Below are positions 2-16,048 of a stretch of DNA of 16,048 nt, piece after piece; position 1 is the stretch's first letter, and each line of letters begins with the position of its first letter. The translations under genes and the position numbers were made by a program. Source of the stretch: a virus. Its lineage: Duplodnaviria > Heunggongvirae > Uroviricota > Caudoviricetes. Under the pieces are notes generated by a model that was given only the letters and a program-made list of their open reading frames with translations, made no database searches and had not been told where the DNA came from. The stretch lies in IMG/VR virus record IMGVR_UViG_2548876955_000010; one strand, 5' to 3'.

Positions 2-1282
2 TTAATTTTTCATTGCTTCGTTATGGGGCATGGTTGGGGCAAACTCGCTTAACTGTGTATTTAACAAAGCTACCTGTGCATTATTGTTTTCAGACATCCA
101 TTTTCCGTATACCTGAAATACCATTTGCGCATCTGCATGGCCCATCTGGTTTGCTATAAATGCCGGGTTAGCACCAGCTGTCAGCGACCAGCAGGCATAA
201 GTATGTCTCGACTGATATGATTTTCGATGGCGGAGTCCGGCACGTTTTATCGCTGCGTCCCACATCTGCCTTATTGAGTCAACGGTAAAATGGTCACCAT
301 AATTTTTTACTCTCGCTGACACTTCAGGTTGAAAAACAAAGGTGCATTTTTGTTTTTCTGTTCTGCCATACTCTCTGAGGTGAACATCAATGATATGCTC
401 TTTGCTCAGTCTCGTTAATGTCATCTGACTCCGGAGAGCGTCGATTGCTGGCTTAATAAGATGAATGACCCGATTGGTTCCCGCCTGTGTTTTTGGTACC
501 GTGAAACGGTCTTTTGCTAAATTTCTCCTGATCATCATTGTTCCATTTTTCAGATCTATGTCCTCCCATCCAAGTGCACACAGCTCACCAGGGCGAACGC
601 CAGTATAAACAGAAACACACCATAAATTTTTTGCTTGCTGATTTCTGCACGCATCGATAAGACGGATAAATTCCTCCCGCGAAAGAGGATCCGGAATGGT
701 TCTTGATTCCTTTAATGGCGAGATCCCCTTAAACGGATTATCTGGCAGGTAACCGTTATCAACACCAAACTGGAACACGGCGTTAAGATTTGTCATGTAA
801 TTATTTACAGTTACAGCCGATCTCCCTGGTTGTGTAACAATATAGTTACTTTTGGGGATCTGGTATCCAGTCAGTAGCTCTTTACGAACCTCCAGTAATT
901 TTTCTTTATTAATCGATGAGGCAAGATTTTTTTCACCGATTATGCTCAGGATATTTTTGATGACGGCACGGTATGTGTTGAGTGATGTTTTGGCGACTTC
1001 AGTTTCTTTCAGTGCCAGAAATTTTTCAGCCAGTTCTTTTATGGTTAAATCTTGTCGGGCCTCACCAAATTTTTCCAGATTGCGTGAGGAGGGAAACTGT
1101 TTTGCATAGTCGAAAACACCAGTTTTTATTGCGTAACAAACAGAGGAGCGTAGTTCACCTGCAACGCGCCTGTTTTTTGCTGTGTCAGGAACCCCCAGAT
1201 TTTCCCTGACTCTTACGCCTTTATAAACAAACCAGATACGTAATTTCCCTCCATGGTTTTCCACGCCTGTCGGATATTTCAT
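2..1282 (-). CDS. int: Phage tyrosine integrase (site-specific recombinase); C-terminus abuts the window edge
   Basis: Long minus-strand ORF (track 2..1297). Translation has integrase-like C-terminal catalytic region (…RHTYACWSLTAGANPAFIANQMGHADAQMVFQVYGKWMSE, conserved R/H/Y context). Start placed at internal ATG 1282 (MKYPTG…); the upstream ATG at 1297 is an alternative. Product assignment from family knowledge, not a search. Confidence 0.88.
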   Translation of the reverse strand: MKYPTGVENHGGKLRIWFVYKGVRVRENLGVPDTAKNRRVAGELRSSVCYAIKTGVFDYAKQFPSSRNLEKFGEARQDLTIKELAEKFLALKETEVAKTSLNTYRAVIKNILSIIGEKNLASSINKEKLLEVRKELLTGYQIPKSNYIVTQPGRSAVTVNNYMTNLNAVFQFGVDNGYLPDNPFKGISPLKESRTIPDPLSREEFIRLIDACRNQQAKNLWCVSVYTGVRPGELCALGWEDIDLKNGTMMIRRNLAKDRFTVPKTQAGTNRVIHLIKPAIDALRSQMTLTRLSKEHIIDVHLREYGRTEKQKCTFVFQPEVSARVKNYGDHFTVDSIRQMWDAAIKRAGLRHRKSYQSRHTYACWSLTAGANPAFIANQMGHADAQMVFQVYGKWMSENNNAQVALLNTQLSEFAPTMPHNEAMKN

Positions 1283-1640: not shown

Positions 1641-4112
1641 TTAAGAATCAGCCTGACTCGGGATCAGTTTTTGCCAGATAACTGAAACGTATTTTGCCTG
1701 GTAACGGGCGTCATCAAGTGCATTATGGCGCTCACCTTCGAATGGAATAGCCGTTCTGGCATCGAAGTCTATGGCTTTCCCCAGCTCAACGATTGTGCGT
1801 ACATCGCGATCGTTGTAGTAACGCCACGGGCAGGGGATCCCCTGCCGTTCGTATGAACGGCGCAAAATCGTGTTGTCGAAGTTGGCTCCATTTCCCCAGA
1901 CCTGAACAAAAAATTCACCGGAGTTTTCGTCGATAAATTCCCGCAATTGTAACAGTGCATCATCTAACGGGATTTCATCGGTCATAATGGCAGATTGCGC
2001 TTCGCGTGATTGCTTAAGCCACCATTTAATGGTGTCCCGATCAATGACTCCGCCAGCAGTTTCCAGATCGATAGTCTTACTAAATTCCGGTCCCATATCT
2101 CCGGTTTGCGGATCGAAAAATATTGCACCTATTGAGATGATCGGGGCATCAGGATTTTTTCCCATGGTTTCAAGGTCGATCATTAGATGGTCACACGTCC
2201 TGCTGGTGGATGTGATTTCGTGATGACCGTTCACCTTAATTGAGTGATCTGCCGTCTCGCCAGTTTCATTATCGCTATCGTGATGCTGATTGCCGCCAGT
2301 GTTCTCCTTGTGTGGATGTTCAGCGCCTTCCATTTCCTTCGGATCATCTTCCTGAACTTCAACCTGATACTCTTCATCGAATGTTTCCTGGTATGTTGCG
2401 TCGCCCATCACCGCGCCACAATCAGGGCAGTTGCCGCCGCCGGTCTGACCGCAGGCGGTGCAGACTTTTTCCACTTCCTGTTGCGCCACTGGTTCAGGCT
2501 GTTTCGTTTCTGGCTCGTTTTGTAACGCATTTGGGCTGTTTTGTTCCGCTTTTTGGTAGTTCCGTTCCGATTCATGCTGGTTCTGGTTCACAGAATCGCG
2601 GGTCTGGATCCCCTTAACCCATTTCGGATCATTCGGGTCACTAATCCCTTCAACAAATTCACCACGTGATGCAGCAAGCAACTTATCGGCGTCAGGCTGG
2701 CTGATATTGGCTGCCTGCATAATTTTGTTTACTTCGTCAGCGGTAACTTTTATCGGTTCTGGTTGTTCTGAATCTTCAGCGGTATCTACATTTTGCGGTA
2801 AGCCCGTGTATGTGCCATTTTTTCGGGCAAAATATTCTTCTTTAGTGATTTCAGTGGCGCCAGCAGCCAGTGCCTTATCCAGACCAGAAAGTTTGTTTGC
2901 GCGACCGTATTTTTCTCCGTCCTTATCTGCGAAGAGGAAATAGAACGGCCCCTCACGCTCTACAGATGGTTCAGCTTCCGGCGCGGTTTCATTTTTTGGG
3001 ATATCAGATACCTCAGTTTCCACTGCATCAGTTTGTGTTTCTGATGACTGGAGAACATCAACAGTGCCCAGGTCTGTTTCTTCATTCTCAAACACGCCCT
3101 TTGTCGTCAGGTATTCGCAGATATATTTGTTCAGTGCTACGGGTTCTTTGTGAATGTCGATCGGACGCTCACGGACAAGGCCAAAAATAGTTTGGCGGTC
3201 GTAGCGAAGGGCATCAGGCTGTTTGCGCATTGATGCCGAGATACGCTTCCAGTCTTCGCGGTCGTTGTCGATAACTTCTTTTTTTGCCCAGCGATGGATG
3301 CTGCCGTCAATGTTTCCGGCATCCACATCACCAGGCCAGAGAGCGTAGGCCAGTTCGTCATCCAGTGTTTTCCATGTCTGCTTGTATTCGCGATGAATGG
3401 CAGCAATGACCGGGCTGATTTTTCCTGTTGAATTTTCAGTGTACTGTTGATTGGCTCTGGTGCGGGCGAGATCAACAACAGACGTGTATTTTCCGGTTCC
3501 CTTGCGTTCACCTTCGCGACGTTTTTTCCAGATGCGCATCTCTGCCTGAATTTCGGGCCATTTAGCACCAGGAATACATTTATGCTTAACCCACCCAATG
3601 GCGTGCAACTTAAGCTCCGGATACATGGCGTTAACTTCTGGCATTTTCATCAACGCTTCAACGATATGTCCGTCGAATGTTGCCATGTCTTCCTGCAACA
3701 ATTCCTGTGCGCTAATAACCATATCAACGGTGATGTTTTCACATGTGTCGAACTTAACCATGACAGCGTTCTGTACTTCAGGGGCCAGCTTGTCAAAAGT
3801 GACGTTCATCGGATCGGATTCAGTCTCAACCGGGACAAAAGAAGCAGACTCCTCATCCCAGCGGTTTTCCTGCATATATTCAGCATCCCATGAATCGAGG
3901 GCAGGGCGGGGTATGCCAGGTTTATCCTCGCAGACAATAAATTTATAAGCGCAGTCCTGAGCAGCCGGATAATGTTCCAGGAATTGCCAGTGAAATTTTG
4001 CTCGAGCACGGCGTTCGTCGCCAGCTTCAATGGCTGTGGCTACAGCCACAGCGCCTTCTTCCCTTGTTGCCAGTTCGTCAGGAATAGCGGCGCAAATAAA
4101 GACTTTACTCAT
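1641..4112 (-). CDS. Exodeoxyribonuclease VIII-like protein (RecE/YdfE family), intact 823 aa, with C-terminal DnaQ-like DEDDh exonuclease-like region
   Basis: 823-aa ORF with GAGG RBS about 8 nt before ATG 4112. C-terminal part has MIDLETMG…H…ALDDAR-type acidic motifs typical of DEDD 3'-5' exonucleases. Cys cluster VCTACGQTGGGNCPDCG (C-x2-C-x8-C-x2-C). N-terminus resembles what I recall of the truncated K-12 Qin ydfE product. Confidence 0.85.
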   Translation of the reverse strand: MSKVFICAAIPDELATREEGAVAVATAIEAGDERRARAKFHWQFLEHYPAAQDCAYKFIVCEDKPGIPRPALDSWDAEYMQENRWDEESASFVPVETESDPMNVTFDKLAPEVQNAVMVKFDTCENITVDMVISAQELLQEDMATFDGHIVEALMKMPEVNAMYPELKLHAIGWVKHKCIPGAKWPEIQAEMRIWKKRREGERKGTGKYTSVVDLARTRANQQYTENSTGKISPVIAAIHREYKQTWKTLDDELAYALWPGDVDAGNIDGSIHRWAKKEVIDNDREDWKRISASMRKQPDALRYDRQTIFGLVRERPIDIHKEPVALNKYICEYLTTKGVFENEETDLGTVDVLQSSETQTDAVETEVSDIPKNETAPEAEPSVEREGPFYFLFADKDGEKYGRANKLSGLDKALAAGATEITKEEYFARKNGTYTGLPQNVDTAEDSEQPEPIKVTADEVNKIMQAANISQPDADKLLAASRGEFVEGISDPNDPKWVKGIQTRDSVNQNQHESERNYQKAEQNSPNALQNEPETKQPEPVAQQEVEKVCTACGQTGGGNCPDCGAVMGDATYQETFDEEYQVEVQEDDPKEMEGAEHPHKENTGGNQHHDSDNETGETADHSIKVNGHHEITSTSRTCDHLMIDLETMGKNPDAPIISIGAIFFDPQTGDMGPEFSKTIDLETAGGVIDRDTIKWWLKQSREAQSAIMTDEIPLDDALLQLREFIDENSGEFFVQVWGNGANFDNTILRRSYERQGIPCPWRYYNDRDVRTIVELGKAIDFDARTAIPFEGERHNALDDARYQAKYVSVIWQKLIPSQADS

Positions 4113-4751: not shown

Positions 4752-4809
4752 AAAAACGGCGGCAGAGCAGTCACGGAGTAAAACTGATACCGCCAAACGT
4801 CACCAGAAA
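4752..4809 (-). ncRNA. dicF: DicF small regulatory RNA (ftsZ-targeting sRNA of the dicB operon)
   Basis: Minus-strand sequence TTTCTGGTGACGTTTGGCGGTATCAGTTTTACTCCGTGACTGCTCTGCCGCCGTTTTT matches the DicF sequence as I recall it, including the GGCGG/CCGCC stem and 3' U-tract. Ends are approximate. Confidence 0.85.
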
Positions 4810-8620: not shown

Positions 8621-8686
8621 CGAGATTAAAGTGCATTAGTTCAGATATAATTTGACATTTTCATGGCACAGTGTAGAGCTGGCGTG

Positions 8687-8716
8687 GTTGTCTGCTTTGT
8701 GGCAAAAGCAGACAAC
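8687..8716. repeat. Perfect 12-bp inverted repeat (GTTGTCTGCTTT / AAAGCAGACAAC) with 6-nt spacer; hairpin or protein-binding site
   Basis: Seen directly in sequence at 8687..8698 and 8705..8716. No flanking T-tract, so not a canonical intrinsic terminator. Sits between the replication module and the AT-rich cargo gene. Confidence 0.4.
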
Positions 8717-8898
8717 TCTAACGTAACGAGCGGGCGTCAGATATCTAAAAACTCATGGTGTGACTGTATGGGGGGTTAGAGTGGTGTCAGTCCAAATATT
8801 TCAAGAGTGAATGAAGTCATTATATAACAATGTTTTTTATTGCTATAGTCTCTGTTCAATGTCATTTTTTTGGTAAAAAGGATTGCTAAGGAATTTGT

Positions 8899-11496
8899 AT
8901 GACACCTATAGAAAAAATCGCAAATTGGTCTAAAAATAAACCTGTCTGGTGGCGGCACTCGCTACGTCTTGCATTAAATAATGGAACATTGGAGCAAGAC
9001 GATTTCAATGAAATATTTAAGTTAGCTTGCATGGAGCATGGTTTGTTGGAGAAAAACGCACATTTTTCTGAATGTGAAAAACCGATAGATTTTACTGGCT
9101 ATGCTGCTGAACTACATGAGGTATCATTAAAATCAATTTATGACGTAAAAGGCGTTGGGATACTGGCAGAAAACCAAAAGCTCAATTTTTCTAACAATGG
9201 CCTGTTTATCGTTTATGGTGATAATGGCGCCGGAAAATCAAGCTATGCAAGCATTTTAAAAAATGCATGCTTAACCCGAGGGGATAGCCCTGCAATTATT
9301 GGGAATGTCTTTTCCAAACTGAACTTACCTCCTCAAGCAAAACTCGCTGTTTCATGTAATGGTGTGGATGAAATTCATTCATGGAATCAACAAGTATCAA
9401 GCATTGAATCATTAAAGTCTATTCGTATATTTGACAGTTCATCTGCAAGCCATTACGTAAACAAAGAAGATGCTCTGGGTTTTAAACCTGTTGGACTAAA
9501 TTTACTTACTGAGTTGGTTCGTGCCATCGGAAGTGTTAATGCTTTTATTAATGAAGATACTATGCCCGGAAATGGTCTTACTACATTGATGAAGCTACAG
9601 TCAGGCAGCGTTACCGCTAGCTTTGCCAACAATCTTTCGGCAAATACTTTTGAAGGAGACGTCGATAATCATATTGCTACTGAAGCTGACTTACAACGAA
9701 TAGAAAGTTTGAGAAGAGAAATAAATCAATACAAGTCCCAGACGGCTGAAACGATAAAAAGTGCGTTGGAACAGAATAAGAGAACCCTTTCTCCACTTAA
9801 AAGTTTTTGTGATAGTTCAATTAAATTATTAGGTAATAATGCTGTTTTAGAACTAACAAAGCTACAGGCCGAACAAGAACGAACACAACATGTTTCTGAA
9901 GAACTACGTAAAGCTACATTACAAAATCTACCTTTAGATACAGTTGCAGGTCTTAGCTGGCAGAATTTATGGAAAGCAGCTAAAAACTTTATTGAACAGG
10001 AAACACGAAAGCAAAATTTCCCGATGCAAAAAGGAGAGCCTTGCCCGCTTTGTTTGCAAGAGATTGGCTTGGAAAGTGAAAGCAGATTGGCTGCATTAGC
10101 ACAGTATTTAAGTGACGAAACGGCGCAGTCAGCAAAAATCGCAAAGTACAATGTTGATAATGCATTAAAATTATTGTCCTCACATTCTCTCGAGCTAACC
10201 CCTTACATTGCAGCTATTGAATTTCTTAATGATAAGCACCCACCTCTGGGTGATGACGTCAAAATGATGTTTGCGCTCCTAGCGGAAAGAAAGGGAAATA
10301 TGTTATTAGGTAATGTTGAAGATACACATGCTGCATTGAATACTGAATGTGTAAATCAGTTTAATAAAATCATTGAGGGTCTCGATCAAAGTATACTCAG
10401 TGTTAATTCGGATGCGGATTTTTTGCTGTTAATAAAAAGGGAAGAGATGGAGTTAGCACGACTGGAAGATATGAAATATGTGTTGGATAATAAATCCAAT
10501 ATTATTTCTAACATCAGGCGTCTCAAAATTATTAAAAAATTTGAAAATTTGCAGTCACAATGCGGAACAACATCAATTTCAACTTTGTCTTCTCAGATAA
10601 GTCGTTCTGGTGTTGTTGAGCCGTTGATTTCAGCATTTAGCGAGGAACTGCGTAATTTTGGTTTTGAACGCTTCAAAGTGAAAGTTGATACCCGAAATCG
10701 TTCTGGTGAGCAGCAGTTTAAATTATCATTGGCTGATGAAGATGATGTGACTATTGCTACACTCGGAGTTGCAAGTGAGGGGGAACAACGATGTATTGCT
10801 ATTGCCAGTTTCCTTGCCGAAATGAAGGCTGATGCAAGAAAGTCGGCCGTTATATTTGATGATCCAGTTAACTCATTAAGTCATGAGTGGAGCAGCCGGG
10901 TTGCAAGACGCCTAGCCTTAGAATCGAAAAATAGACAGGTTATTGTCTTAACTCATAATATAGTTTTTTACAAACTACTGCTGGAAGTCGCTGAAGAGAT
11001 AAATGCAGAATGCTCCTGTATTGCTCTTGAACGCTCCCGTAAACTTGCAGGCTTAGTCAGGGAGTCAGCCCCTTGGGAAGCAATGACTACGCGAAGCAGA
11101 TACAAAGAACTTAAAGTTAAACTACAAGAGCTTAAACGATTAGATAAAAGGGATGAGACAACAGTTGCTGAGTTTCGTTTGGCATCTTGTCAGTTTTACG
11201 GATTTCTACGCGAGGCTTGGGAAAGGCTTGTTGAAGAGAAGCTTCTTAATAAAGTAGTGACTCGTTTTGAAAGAGGCATCTCTACTCAGCGATTAGCTCG
11301 ATTAAAAGATATCAATCAGGATGATCTTGATAAGATTGATCGTGGAATGTCTAAATGTAGCACTTATTTTAGAGGGCATGATAGCGCGCCTGCTGTCGGT
11401 GATCCTTATCCAATGATTGCTGAAATAGAGCAGGATTTAGATGCGATTAACATATTCTTAACCGAGCTTGAGAGCCCTTCCAGAAAAAGAAATTAA
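8899..11496 (+). CDS. Large P-loop ATPase (ABC/AAA_13-like) with coiled-coil CxxC insertion and distinct C-terminal domain; candidate RloC/PrrC-like abortive-infection / anticodon-nuclease protein
   Basis: 865-aa ORF with AAGGA RBS 6 nt before ATG 8899. Walker A GDNGAGKS (nt 9217..9240). Walker B-like AVIFDDP (nt 10846..10866) followed by VLTHN. More than 500 aa between the two motifs, K/E/Q-rich with CPLC (nt 10042..10053). C-terminal about 170 aa contain LREAWE and YFRGHDS. Gene and flanks are visibly AT-rich relative to neighbouring prophage genes. Function is inference. Confidence 0.85.
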   Translation: MTPIEKIANWSKNKPVWWRHSLRLALNNGTLEQDDFNEIFKLACMEHGLLEKNAHFSECEKPIDFTGYAAELHEVSLKSIYDVKGVGILAENQKLNFSNNGLFIVYGDNGAGKSSYASILKNACLTRGDSPAIIGNVFSKLNLPPQAKLAVSCNGVDEIHSWNQQVSSIESLKSIRIFDSSSASHYVNKEDALGFKPVGLNLLTELVRAIGSVNAFINEDTMPGNGLTTLMKLQSGSVTASFANNLSANTFEGDVDNHIATEADLQRIESLRREINQYKSQTAETIKSALEQNKRTLSPLKSFCDSSIKLLGNNAVLELTKLQAEQERTQHVSEELRKATLQNLPLDTVAGLSWQNLWKAAKNFIEQETRKQNFPMQKGEPCPLCLQEIGLESESRLAALAQYLSDETAQSAKIAKYNVDNALKLLSSHSLELTPYIAAIEFLNDKHPPLGDDVKMMFALLAERKGNMLLGNVEDTHAALNTECVNQFNKIIEGLDQSILSVNSDADFLLLIKREEMELARLEDMKYVLDNKSNIISNIRRLKIIKKFENLQSQCGTTSISTLSSQISRSGVVEPLISAFSEELRNFGFERFKVKVDTRNRSGEQQFKLSLADEDDVTIATLGVASEGEQRCIAIASFLAEMKADARKSAVIFDDPVNSLSHEWSSRVARRLALESKNRQVIVLTHNIVFYKLLLEVAEEINAECSCIALERSRKLAGLVRESAPWEAMTTRSRYKELKVKLQELKRLDKRDETTVAEFRLASCQFYGFLREAWERLVEEKLLNKVVTRFERGISTQRLARLKDINQDDLDKIDRGMSKCSTYFRGHDSAPAVGDPYPMIAEIEQDLDAINIFLTELESPSRKRN

Positions 11497-11512
11497 TCAT
11501 TAACTTCATAAT

Positions 11513-11540
11513 CAAACCCTGTGTTTGATGCGGGGTTTTG
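11513..11540 (+). terminator. Weak candidate intrinsic terminator downstream of the ATPase gene
   Basis: AAACCC…GGGGTTTT imperfect hairpin with a 12-nt loop and short T-run. Marginal stability. Confidence 0.3.
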
Positions 11541-11811
11541 ACTTTATGTAAGTATTCTAGGAAATCGCTCCATTACCTTTTGAAGTCCCTTGCAACCTAG
11601 CTAACACAACTTCCGCTCCTCGCTCAAAGCGGACTGGAAGGTTAGCTTGCGTCGGACTTTGCGTATTAAAAGAAGTGCTGGTGGTGACTGGTGGTTGAGC
11701 CCCATTTCCACAGAAAAATCAGAGAAACCATACCCAATAGTTGTATTGAATCACGGACGAGACAGCCTCATATTTATCAGGGCTGGTGTACGTCCAATAC
11801 AGGAGGTTGTG

Positions 11812-11901
11812 GTGCTGGTTCTCAAATGTGCGCTGGCTATTACGGCTGTAATGGCGATTTATTGTCTTGCTATTGTTCTTATGGATCGCCTTTCTGACTG
11901 A
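11812..11901 (+). CDS. Candidate 29-aa hydrophobic small peptide (type I toxin-like or leader peptide)
   Basis: Consensus SD AGGAGG (11801..11806) 5 nt before GTG 11812. Translation (M)LVLKCALAITAVMAIYCLAIVLMDRLSD is a single TM-like helix. Lies about 210 nt upstream of mok/hok. Not matched to a known family from memory. Confidence 0.35.
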   Translation: MLVLKCALAITAVMAIYCLAIVLMDRLSD

Positions 11902-12055
11902 TTTCATATTGGCGAGGTAAAGGTAGTTAAGTAGAATGGCTGCGGGTGCTTGAGGCTATCTGCCTCGGGCATGAACACCAAAGGCAGATAGAGAAAAGCC
12001 CCAGTTAACATTACGCGTCCTGCAAGACGCTTAATATTAATCTGAGGCCAATTTC

Positions 12056-12268
12056 ATGCTAGACACATGTAGGTTAGCCTCTTACGTGCCGGAAGGCAAG
12101 GAGAAGCAGGCTATGAAGCAGCAAAAGGCGATGTTAATCGCCCTGATCGTCATCTGTTTAACCGTCATAGTGACGGCACTGGTAACGAGGAAAGACCTCT
12201 GCGAGGTACGAATCCGAACCGGCCAGACGGAGGTCGCTGTCTTCACAGCTTACGAACCTGAGGAGTAA
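12056..12268 (+). CDS. Mok-like overlapping frame (N-terminally extended Hok, MokC-type)
   Basis: In-frame upstream ATG at 12056 gives MLDTCRLASYVPEGKEKQA + Hok; this resembles the MokC/HokC arrangement. Confidence 0.45.
   Translation: MLDTCRLASYVPEGKEKQAMKQQKAMLIALIVICLTVIVTALVTRKDLCEVRIRTGQTEVAVFTAYEPEE
12113..12268 (+). CDS. hok: Hok/Gef-family type I toxin (51 aa membrane peptide)
   Basis: MKQQKAMLIALIVICLTVIVTALVTRKDLCEVRIRTGQTEVAVFTAYEPEE carries the Hok/Gef signature (LIVIC…LVTRKDLCEV…GQTEVA…AYE). Which hok paralogue it is cannot be resolved. Confidence 0.88.
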   Translation: MKQQKAMLIALIVICLTVIVTALVTRKDLCEVRIRTGQTEVAVFTAYEPEE

Positions 12269-15532: not shown

Positions 15533-15832
15533 AAAAATTCCTTAATACTGATAACTTGGCGCACTATACACACGTTCCTGAAGAAAGCTATAGTTTTTTG
15601 ATGGGGTTGAAGATGGCTGGATGTCTAAAATAAACATTGCTTCATATGTTCAACTATGCGTTAATGATTGCGTCGGTTTGAAGAACAGACGATATACGAA
15701 GTAGTTTACTAAAGCAGTTCTCATTTCAGGTGTTATTCACTTATTCCTTCTTTGAGTCTCTCCAATTAAGTACGAAGTCGTTTCTGTTATGCAAACCATT
15801 TATGCCGAAAGGCTCAAGTTAAGGAATGTAGA

Positions 15833-16048
15833 ATGTCAAATAAAATGACTGGTTTAGTAAAATGGTTTAACGCTGATAAAGGTTTCGGCTTTATTTCTCC
15901 TGTTGATGGTAGTAAAGATGTGTTTGTGCATTTTTCTGCGATTCAGAATGATAATTATCGAACCTTATTTGAAGGTCAAAAGGTTACCTTCTCTATAGAG
16001 AGTGGTGCTAAAGGTCCTGCAGCAGCAAATGTCATCATTACTGATTAA
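15833..16048 (+). CDS. cspB: Cold-shock protein CspB-like (71 aa)
   Basis: [71 protein letters not shown] with RNP1-like KGFGFI and RNP2-like VFVHF motifs. Long 5' leader (about 300 nt) typical of csp genes. Stop TAA at 16046..16048. Confidence 0.9.

Follow-up and report, generated by a model that had tools for sequence, protein, structure and literature searches.

The 865-aa protein encoded in the cargo region of a Qin-type Escherichia coli prophage is best read, with slightly better than even confidence, as the product of a stand-alone abortive-infection-type defence moron that combines an RloC-like sensor ATPase with a HEPN-like RNase. Its gene lies in a viral record (IMG/VR IMGVR_UViG_2548876955_000010), the whole 16,048-nucleotide stretch of which is referred to here as the window, and the product is identical to WP_024241010.1, which is annotated as “AAA family ATPase”. 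A sequence-only reading of this DNA, made without database searches, had proposed a Rad50-like ABC ATPase with a zinc-hook-like insertion and a C-terminal nuclease triad, possibly an RloC/PrrC-type anticodon nuclease. It is plausible from our analysis that the gene is an RloC-like abortive defence gene belonging to a distinct and very widespread subfamily.

The record represents a Qin-type E. coli prophage at ynfA/rspAB, in which the ATPase gene is preceded by an O-like replication gene and a DUF977/Ren-like gene and followed by sok/hokD, that is, between the replication module and hok as had been noted from the sequence. Homology to E. coli SJC33 ends at position 8714 and restarts at 11581, delimiting a 2.9-kb cassette of which the ATPase gene is the sole gene (Table 1), and the left junction falls inside the 3′ arm of a hairpin that follows the DUF977 gene. 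The G+C content ranges from 0.37 to 0.41 along the ATPase gene and from 0.45 to 0.53 in the flanks, which bears out the AT-richness claimed earlier. The presence of relBE at the same place in the K-12 Qin prophage was also found to be correct, since relB-relE lies directly upstream of hokD and thus occupies the same slot, while E. coli SJC33 and three other strains carry an FRG-domain gene there. The cassette itself is carried by 3 of 5,426 complete E. coli genomes. A tblastn search against 50,697 phage records gave no match to the ATPase, and PHROGs has no full-length family for it, only weak SbcC-like matches; no restriction-modification (R-M) genes are found in the window. The gene therefore has the features that define a prophage defence moron, being non-core, compositionally distinct and self-contained, placed in a variable slot, and having homologs in mobile and defence contexts, and its designation as cargo rather than core gene is upheld. 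The candidate promoter within the cassette was read by eye and scored below the threshold of a consensus promoter scan, and the weak hairpin past the stop codon, likewise read by eye, was not among the terminators reported by a terminator scan.

Table 1. Features of the ATPase cassette and its product (positions in the window; aa numbering of the 865-aa protein).
Feature	Position	Strand	Basis
Hairpin 3′ of DUF977 gene, 12-bp stem GTTGTCTGCTTT / AAAGCAGACAAC, loop GTGGCA	8687..8716	+	From sequence
Variable single-gene cargo cassette, AT-rich, 2,866 bp	8715..11580	+	Homology break vs E. coli SJC33; GC
Candidate sigma-70 promoter TTCAAG-17 nt-TATAAC, within cassette	8800..8828	+	Read by eye; inferred
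Ribosome-binding site AAGGA, 6 nt 5′ of ATG	8888..8892	+	From sequence
865-aa ABC ATPase gene, PDC-S06 / RloC-like group, ATG start	8899..11496	+	Pfam and PADLOC matches
N-terminal helical domain, aa 1-70	8899..9108	+	AF2 helices 3-11, 16-28, 33-46, 54-59
ABC head N-lobe, aa 75-200	9121..9498	+	Pfam, AF2, Foldseek
Walker A GDNGAGKS, aa 107-114 (K113)	9217..9240	+	From translation
Helical (coiled-coil-like) insertion, aa 201-589	9499..10665	+	AF2, Foldseek, PHROG
CPLC zinc-hook-like motif, aa 382-385, insertion midpoint	10042..10053	+	Conservation; SbcC comparison
ABC head C-lobe, aa 590-721	10666..11061	+	Pfam, AF2; hhalign to RloC alignment 98%
ABC signature SEGEQ, aa 626-630	10774..10788	+	From translation
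Walker B/D-loop AVIFDDP, aa 650-656	10846..10866	+	From translation
H-loop H686 (LTHN, aa 684-687)	10954..10956	+	From translation
C-terminal four-helix bundle, HEPN-like candidate effector, aa 722-865	11062..11493	+	
R771 (LREAWE), helix 2	11209..11211	+	
E775 (LREAWE), helix 2	11221..11223	+	
H827 (YFRGHDS), start of helix 3-4 loop, beside D828	11377..11379	+	
Weak terminator-like hairpin AAACCC...GGGTTT then TTT, past stop codon	11514..11539	+	Read by eye; inferred

The open reading frame and every motif quoted in the sequence-only reading are present in the translation, together with an ABC signature, SEGEQ, that was absent from its motif list. These motifs place the protein among ABC ATPases of the SMC/Rad50/SbcC-like clade, as had been proposed, and Pfam matches to AAA_13, AAA_21 and SMC_N agree with this; the profile search suggested as a check gave AAA_13 at 62 bits against a cut-off of 36 bits, on the ATPase part. 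An AF2 model of the full protein (pLDDT 85) predicts an ABC head in two lobes, separated by a helical insertion at whose midpoint lies a hairpin with the CxxC, and Foldseek retrieved SMC, Rad50, JetC and retron Ec83 ATPase structures, the SMC/Rad50 heads with E-values of 2e-8. Conservation was assessed in 204 full-length homologs of 25-100% identity: it is complete (100%) at K113, D654, D655, W354, C382, C385, R771 and E775, and 99.5% at H827, E779, R789 and Y767. GDNGAGKS, SEGEQ, FDDP (653-656) and H686 are conserved at 99% or more, except for Q630 (74%) and F653 (91%), and because conservation is nearly total at such divergence the motifs are not due to chance. Ahead of the head lies a helical domain with conserved W10, P15 and W17 that has no match in Pfam. 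It is specific to the family and missing in a canonical RloC ortholog, where Walker A already occupies aa 31-38.

The 390-aa insertion that divides the head comprises about 17 helices in the AF2 model, and its only strands belong to the hairpin that carries the CxxC. Foldseek matches here are SMC/Rad50/JetC heads with coiled coils, and aa 267-689 can be aligned with the SbcC-like profile of PHROG. CPLC is the sole CxxC of the protein, both cysteines are invariant, and among the 204 homologs the insertion has no further Cys or His that is conserved, so the predicted helical insertion with a single zinc-hook-like motif agrees with what had been read from the sequence. The hook-like motif reads GEPCPLCLQ here, and the hook GQPCPLCGS in E. 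coli SbcC, the tetrapeptide being identical, and across the homologs it takes the form CP[LV]C. Located at the arm's tip, CPLC probably binds zinc and forms an inter-subunit hook, on which the protein would dimerize. Mutation of the hook in RloC de-represses its nuclease.

In the C-terminal domain, AF2 predicts with a pLDDT of 88 an up-down four-helix bundle (helices 731-750, 756-782, 807-823 and 840-858) that agrees with the structural definition of HEPN, with an insert (783-806) between helices 2 and 3; K819 ends helix 3. In this model R771, E775 and H827 would occupy the catalytic positions of HEPN and RloC nucleases, which fits a candidate triad. The residues are arranged as R771-x3-E775-x51-H827, and the spacer between Glu and His is 48-53 residues among the 204 homologs, against the RloC motif R-x3-E-x36-52-H (Davidov & Kaufmann, 2008; PMC2610378), the range of which is exceeded by one residue in 2 of the 204. 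As compared with HEPN, Lys takes the position of the canonical Arg, and the spacer from this residue to the His is mostly 7 residues instead of 4-6. Near-invariance of R, E, E, R, K, C, H, D and D within this 140-aa domain, extending to relatives of 25% identity, indicates a catalytic or ligand site. Foldseek on the bundle alone returned generic four-helix bundles, HEPN domains among them, and the best matches were the protein-binding bundles of vinculin tail, FAT and p130Cas; neither sequence nor Foldseek searches of the domain gave a significant nuclease match. Scanned alone, the domain had no Pfam match and matched only PDC-S06 models in PADLOC, with none to the PrrC model, and the PDB contains no sequence relative of it or of RloC. 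The best 150 matches of a C-terminal profile search were all members of the same family of about 860 aa. Thus, of the R/E/H nuclease triad suggested earlier, the residues and their positions stand, whereas the profile link to the RloC/PrrC nuclease is absent.

How far the kinship with RloC extends was addressed using a canonical ortholog of 746 aa from a Shewanella ANA-3 plasmid, taken from Table S1 of Davidov & Kaufmann (2008; PMC2610378). Like RloC of Geobacillus kaustophilus and Acinetobacter baylyi (AAA_13 / COG4694), our protein is a single polypeptide whose ABC head is interrupted by a helical insertion with a central CxxC, and its last 140 or so residues form a domain in which R-x3-E...H is invariant and lies at a comparable distance from the H-loop. 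PADLOC assigns it to the same PDC-S06 group as the canonical ortholog, and hhalign aligns its family with an RloC alignment at 98% probability in a region that comprises the head C-lobe and part of the arm. Unlike RloC, it is about 100 aa longer, has the extra N-terminal helical domain of this family, carries a CP[LV]C hook of SbcC type where the canonical ortholog has CPFC, and shows GHD where the ortholog has GSH; Ser often precedes the motif His in RloC (Davidov & Kaufmann, 2008; PMC2610378). AAA_13 aligns at best over its profile positions 324-582 of 713, compared with 1-713 (E=4e-178) in the canonical ortholog, so that homology along the full length of RloC, including the anticodon-nuclease domain, was not found. 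The C-terminal domains have no homology detectable by HMM or hhalign (local mode, C-terminus against C-terminus: not significant, E=0.45), and forced alignments from Walker B to the end, global or with low mact, conflict with each other and do not pair the triads consistently, one placing E779 with the RloC Glu and the other C820 with the RloC Cys. Conversely, the ortholog has no match to the PDC-S06 sub-models that cover our family, and its PrrC-model match (profile 70-314 of 372) reaches further in the direction of the nuclease domain, whereas that of our protein is confined to aa 626-700 (E=7e-5). A search with the G. kaustophilus RloC sequence, machine-read from Supplementary Figure 1 of PMC2610378 and probably unreliable as OCR, gave no match. 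JGI labels canonical RloC “wobble nucleotide-excising tRNase” and the family of about 860 aa “EcfA2” or hypothetical; neither JGI nor COG annotation calls our protein RloC. The earlier designation as an RloC/PrrC-type anticodon nuclease is hence an analogy and no established membership, because the C-terminal domain is unmatched by the C-terminal part of AAA_13, the PADLOC PrrC model and hhalign.

Other known systems share parts of this architecture. PADLOC matches the protein to PDLC04891, a sub-model of PDC-S06 (aa 1-864 against 1-857 of 858, E=0, 1123.5 bits), and because this match is full-length, the family already figures in that catalogue as a candidate defence system made of one gene. 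PDC-S06 is a prediction; in the portions of the literature accessible to us it is named as a PADLOC prediction only, and no experimental validation of any member was found there. It lumps at least two architectures, one canonical RloC-like of about 730-790 aa and the other the class of about 860 aa. PrrC of the E. coli prr locus also joins an ABC-type NTPase to a C-terminal RNase of the HEPN class with R-x3-E...H, the counterpart of which is here a candidate effector, and serves suicide defence by disabling translation. However, PrrC is about 400 aa long, has no coiled-coil/zinc-hook insertion, and is always found within a type Ic R-M locus, by which it is silenced, features that are matched neither by the long insertion of our protein nor by its surroundings. 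Rad50/SbcC (Mre11-Rad50, SbcCD) is among the top structural matches and likewise has an ABC head split by a helical arm with CxxC, G-x-P preceding CPLC as in E. coli SbcC; its antiparallel arm with zinc hook is much longer and less broken, and our protein differs in having no Mre11/SbcD nuclease partner, its own C-terminal candidate effector and a mobile cargo context. Fusions of an ABC ATPase to a C-terminal HEPN domain, the APECO1_4465-type proteins, are frequent in integrated prophages, where their suggested role is the R-M-independent exclusion of other phages (Anantharaman et al., 2013). Table S1 of Davidov & Kaufmann (2008; PMC2610378) has an E. coli APEC O1 entry, possibly this same protein, of 738 aa, the size of the canonical AAA_13 class. 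A transporter ATPase, as the JGI label “EcfA2” would imply, was rejected because NCBIfam transporter models scored 15-23 bits, far under their cut-offs of 190-460 bits.

Homologs occur as solitary genes in prophages, plasmids and defence islands and beside type I R-M systems, which, together with the full-length PDC-S06 match, supports the phage-defence affinity suspected from the sequence. Examples include a moron of P2-like prophages that lies between gpS and gpV, a gene adjoining DarTG in a Yersinia prophage, one at the end of an e14-like prophage, another beside Shedu and HEPN genes, and a distant homolog directly 3′ of hsdM-hsdS-hsdR. In 71 homolog loci we found no conserved partner gene, no neighbour family being present in more than 5; integrases and the type I R-M subunits HsdM and HsdR are among the top recurring neighbours, R-M subunits occurring in only about 4 of the 71. 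Likewise, RloC is mostly a solitary gene with an occasional type I R-M neighbour. Clustering at 50% identity divides the class of about 860 aa into at least 1,900 clusters, with members in Proteobacteria, Bacteroidota, Planctomycetota, Nitrospirota, Firmicutes and Patescibacteria.

Three other explanations have to be weighed against the preferred one. That the protein is canonical RloC, the known wobble-nucleotide-excising anticodon nuclease, poorly annotated by HMM libraries, we consider quite unlikely. It has all three elements by which RloC was screened for, namely the ABC motifs, CxxC in a helical insert and R-x3-E-x36-52-H, and Table S1 of the same study lists gamma-proteobacterial “RloC orthologs” of 861-868 aa (Davidov & Kaufmann, 2008; PMC2610378), the size of our family, in addition to the shared PADLOC group; but the cluster members listed gave no informative names tying these entries to it, and the partial AAA_13 match, the exclusive sub-models, the differing reach of the PrrC model, the unlinked C-terminal domains, the extra 70-aa N-terminal domain and the different hook all speak for a separate class. 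These proteins may, more tentatively, even form an independent family, in which an SbcC-type hook sensor and a private N-terminal domain are combined with a non-canonical HEPN-like effector (K-x5-7-H plus R-x3-E) that is non-orthologous to the RloC nuclease and has a different trigger and/or RNA target; this possible reading would make them a second, convergent “Rad50-hook + HEPN” solution, not a diverged RloC.

A defence ATPase whose bundle is not a nuclease at all is fairly unlikely, the bundle then serving regulation or partner binding, as in a Lamassu- or Wadjet-like SMC sensor, a recruiter of a host nuclease, or some other route of killing. The protein-binding folds at the top of the Foldseek list and the lack of a significant nuclease match would suit such a role, as would the nearest PADLOC matches outside PDC-S06, AriA, LmuB and GajA, which are partner-dependent ABC ATPases; against it stand the single-gene cassette and the 71 loci with no conserved partner, as well as the near-absolute conservation of the nine residues named above, which sit at the HEPN active-site positions. 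A DNA repair or recombination protein of SbcC/RecN/RecF type, acting in the prophage's own replication or recombination, is very improbable. Its place directly 3′ of the replication genes, its weak matches to RecF and to the SbcC-like profile of PHROG, and the SbcC-type hook motif might be taken in its favour, but the cassette is AT-rich, rare and swappable with relBE or the FRG gene, the gene is absent from the phage records and from full-length PHROG families, its homologs are found on plasmids, as morons among tail genes, at R-M loci and within defence islands, and NCBIfam repair models, like the transporter models, score far under their cut-offs. An SbcCD-type role in particular was rejected because there is no SbcD/Mre11-type partner nuclease.

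According to the preferred explanation of an RloC-like sensor with a HEPN-like RNase, head and arm would act as sensor and switch through ATP binding and hydrolysis and, by analogy with RloC, would be triggered by DNA ends or by further DNA or protein signals that a phage induces. The C-terminal bundle would be the effector, a metal-independent HEPN-like RNase built on R771/E775 and K819/H827/D828, which upon release would cleave RNA, the anticodon loops of tRNA being the likeliest target, so that translation would stop and the infection would be aborted.

The E. coli representative is easy to test because the same prophage backbone offers natural controls, with relBE or the FRG-domain gene in the slot. 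If the mechanism is true, this would be a one-gene, prophage-borne suicide defence in which sensing of DNA damage or DNA ends by an SbcC-like zinc-hook ATPase leads to translation shutdown, and it would concern a very large and taxonomically broad family that is annotated everywhere as “AAA family ATPase”. At stake are whether PDC-S06 is one system or two, and how far the RloC motif definition reaches to proteins whose nuclease domain is missed by profiles.

The open reading frame that the sequence-only reading had proposed as an RloC/PrrC-type anticodon nuclease or abortive-infection protein is genuine: it opens with ATG, is preceded by a ribosome-binding site and encodes an 865-aa ATPase in which every motif quoted by that reading was found. 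The gene had been called AT-rich, and its G+C content is indeed 0.37-0.41 against 0.45-0.53 in the flanks.

Features of the window and of the ATPase (nt, window; aa, ATPase)
Feature	Position	Strand	Basis
ATPase ORF	8899-11496	+	window sequence
Ribosome-binding site AAGGA	6 nt 5' of ATPase ATG	+	sequence
Swap slot between DUF977 gene and hokD	8621-12112		
Hairpin, 12-bp stem, containing left cargo boundary	8687-8716		
hokD	12113-12268	+	
sok antitoxin RNA	11944-12118	+	Rfam RF01794, 119 bits
DicF antisense sRNA	4757-4808	-	Rfam RF00039, 72.5 bits
cspA-type thermoregulator 5' UTR	15672-16048	+	Rfam RF01766, 157.7 bits
823-aa ORF	1641-4112	-	
N-terminal four-helix domain	aa 1-60		AlphaFold2
ABC N-lobe	about aa 75-200		AlphaFold2
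All-helical insertion	aa 201-589		AlphaFold2
ABC C-lobe	aa 590-721		AlphaFold2
C-terminal bundle	aa 725-858		AlphaFold2
Bundle helices	aa 731-750, 756-782, 807-823, 840-858		AlphaFold2 domain model
Walker A GDNGAGKS	aa 107-114		sequence
CPLC, sole CxxC	aa 382-385		sequence
ABC signature SEGEQ	aa 626-630		sequence; overlooked by the sequence-only reading
AVIFDDP	aa 650-656		sequence
LTHN	aa 684-687		sequence
LREAWE	R771, E775		sequence
YFRGHDS	H827		sequence

When E. coli SJC33 is aligned to the window, homology ends at 8714 and is back at 11581, and therefore the cargo is 8715-11580, with the ATPase gene as its sole gene. The flanking DUF977 gene and hokD are common to LF82, SJC33, 2014C-4587 (whose prophage is a gene-for-gene match to that of the window) and NR3838, in all of which the slot holds an oppositely oriented FRG-domain gene (445 aa). 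K-12 Qin carries ydfW-flxA-ydfV-relB-relE there, so relBE does lie at this place, as the sequence-only reading had stated, and K-12 homology to the window restarts only 14 nt upstream of hokD. Given these alternative contents, the DUF977-hokD slot behaves as a cassette-swap hotspot of Qin-type prophages and acts as a moron exchange site.

Elsewhere in the window, DicF adjoins dicB and ydfD, the arrangement expected of Qin. The sok RNA overlaps the start of hokD, forming an intact type I toxin-antitoxin directly downstream of the cargo, and the cspA-type 5' UTR, cut by the window end, pertains to the prophage cold-shock gene cspB. The intact 823-aa ORF is labelled 'exonuclease' in the matching RefSeq record; its K-12 Qin counterpart region holds only a ydfE pseudogene fragment and an IS2.

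The AlphaFold2 model of the ATPase (35-sequence alignment, pLDDT 85) shows a split ABC head and a helical insertion midway along which the CxxC sits in a small hairpin, and Foldseek against the PDB retrieved SMC, Rad50, cohesin, JetC and retron Ec83 ATPase structures (best E 2e-8). No Cys or His of the insertion is conserved other than C382 and C385, so a putative zinc site would need two subunits; it would bridge them much like the Rad50 hook, whose zinc site is shared by two subunits (Hopfner 2002, as cited in PMC2610378). The sequence around the CxxC, GEPCPLCLQ, matches the hook GQPCPLCGS of E. coli SbcC, as detected by BLASTP.

The suggested profile search gave a divided answer. Pfam AAA_13 scored above its cut-off (E 4.7e-17, 62 bits against 36 bits), with the top match spanning only profile positions 324-582 of 713, and the PADLOC PrrC model matched aa 626-700 only (E 7e-5); AAA_21 exceeded its own Pfam cut-off and SMC_N fell under its own. 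PDLC04891, a sub-model of the PADLOC candidate defence group PDC-S06, matches end to end (E=0, aa 1-864). PADLOC thus already lists precisely this family among its candidates. Five papers name PDC-S06; two of them give it solely as a PADLOC prediction, and no experimental test was found. Homologs measure 855-880 aa, at identities as low as 26%. The C-terminal-domain profile alone matched 2,786 cluster representatives (50% identity) at E <=1e-3 and 1,935 at E <=1e-10, and the best 150 of the 2,786 all have the ATPase-type architecture or are fragments thereof. Plasmids carry the family too (290 records, with Staphylococcus, Bacillus, Rhizobium and Mycolicibacterium among the genera), as do species representatives from many phyla. 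Among 204 full-length members, K113, D654, D655, W354, C382, C385, R771 and E775 are 100% conserved, and H827, E779, R789, Y767 and H686 99.5%. Klebsiella plasmid matches (H73-H87, e.g. NZ_CP138827.1:8423-8965) are short 'hypothetical proteins' of about 23% identity covering only query aa 1-182, the N-terminal domain and Walker A lobe; they may be truncated relatives, or the N-terminal domain used separately.

Homologs occur in varied surroundings: a 60%-identical moron between gpS and gpV in Enterobacter P2-like prophages, an 86%-identical copy in a Yersinia lambdoid prophage (closest upstream genes, a UvrD-like helicase and DarT-DarG), a 35%-identical one at the end of an E. coli e14-like prophage, a 67% (nt) allele beside a Shedu nuclease and a HEPN-domain gene in an E. 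coli LR-06 island (L009:5972-8415), and a 27%-identical homolog directly after hsdM-hsdS-hsdR in a metagenomic genome (L007). The LR-06 island adjoins an integrase remnant and ypjA. At L007:5791-5988 a 65-aa ORF separates hsdR from the homolog, and the relaxase and coupling-protein module downstream marks the locus as a mobile element. When 71 loci of diverse genomes were compared, none of the neighbouring families came up in more than 5; integrases were commonest (5), followed at 4 each by HsdM, HsdR (type I R-M), another methyltransferase-like family and one unassigned family. The ATPase therefore acts without a partner and moves in the company of defence and mobile genes. Linkage to R-M is rare, as it is for RloC (8/72; Davidov & Kaufmann 2008, PMC2610378).

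The published definition of RloC combines ABC motifs with a CxxC and the pattern R-x3-E-x36-52-H, a triad essential for a nuclease that the hook represses (Davidov & Kaufmann 2008, PMC2610378). As reference we took the canonical 746-aa ortholog of the 2008 Table S1 from the Shewanella sp. ANA-3 plasmid record. Next to it lie a type I R-M operon, an IS200/IS605 transposase, genes of the Qat system and the 'mobile mystery proteins' A and B (L014:10255-20386); the locus is a plasmid defence island. That the ATPase is simply a canonical RloC is quite improbable. The RloC/PrrC-type assignment stood as regards the motif definition, PDC-S06 membership and a profile-profile match to the RloC family that is significant (probability 98%) only between about aa 484 and 692 (query profile columns 492-698), in the head C-lobe and a stretch of the arm; it was not supported by the C-terminal domains, which profile-profile comparison did not align (E 0.45) and for which forced alignments disagree with each other. 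The ortholog matches the whole AAA_13 profile (1-713, E 4e-178) and PDC-S06 sub-models of about 730 aa, and its match to the PrrC model runs on in the direction of the nuclease domain, as far as position 314 of the 372 in that profile. It lacks the N-terminal domain of the ATPase, its own Walker A lying at aa 31-38, and JGI names its relatives 'wobble nucleotide-excising tRNase', whereas ATPase-family members are 'EcfA2' or hypothetical. From sequence comparison we conclude that the window protein is an RloC-like superfamily (PDC-S06) member satisfying the motif definition, yet belongs to a distinct subfamily, whose candidate effector domain is at most a putative homolog of the RloC nuclease.

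A separate model of that domain (pLDDT 88) shows four helices in an up-down bundle, with a hairpin and short helix inserted between helices 2 and 3. In the model, one face of helix 2 bears Y767, R771, E775 and E779, K819 and C820 end helix 3, and H827 and D828 start the loop to helix 4. RloC and PrrC nuclease domains have been assigned to HEPN (Anantharaman et al.). The family motif is R-x3-E-x48-53-H in the 204 full-length members; in its HEPN-like motif the basic residue is Lys in 92% and Arg in 4% of 204 homologs, with a spacer of 7 (5 in a distant clade). A defence ATPase with a non-nuclease bundle sits poorly with the invariant R771 and E775; we regard it as unlikely. A prophage repair or recombination factor, to which the SbcC resemblance might point, is very improbable: NCBIfam repair and transporter models scored far under their cut-offs, and placement in a known repair family was the outcome that the sequence-only reading had set against itself. 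The best-supported model, which we hold with slightly better than even confidence, is an abortive-infection protein in which an SbcC-like head, arm and hook would detect a cue induced by phage. If RloC is a guide (PMC3458546, PMC3874168), the cue may be DNA ends or DNA damage, coupled to a DNA-dependent ATPase. Head and arm would next permit the putative HEPN-like RNase at the C-terminus to act, and its cuts in RNA, probably in tRNA anticodon loops, would stop translation.

The architecture is of a known kind, that of RloC. What is new is the recognition of a separate, very large subfamily, its N-terminal domain, a putative SbcC-type hook and a non-canonical HEPN-like candidate active site. 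The E. coli copy lies in a clean natural cassette-swap locus, which makes it easy to test.
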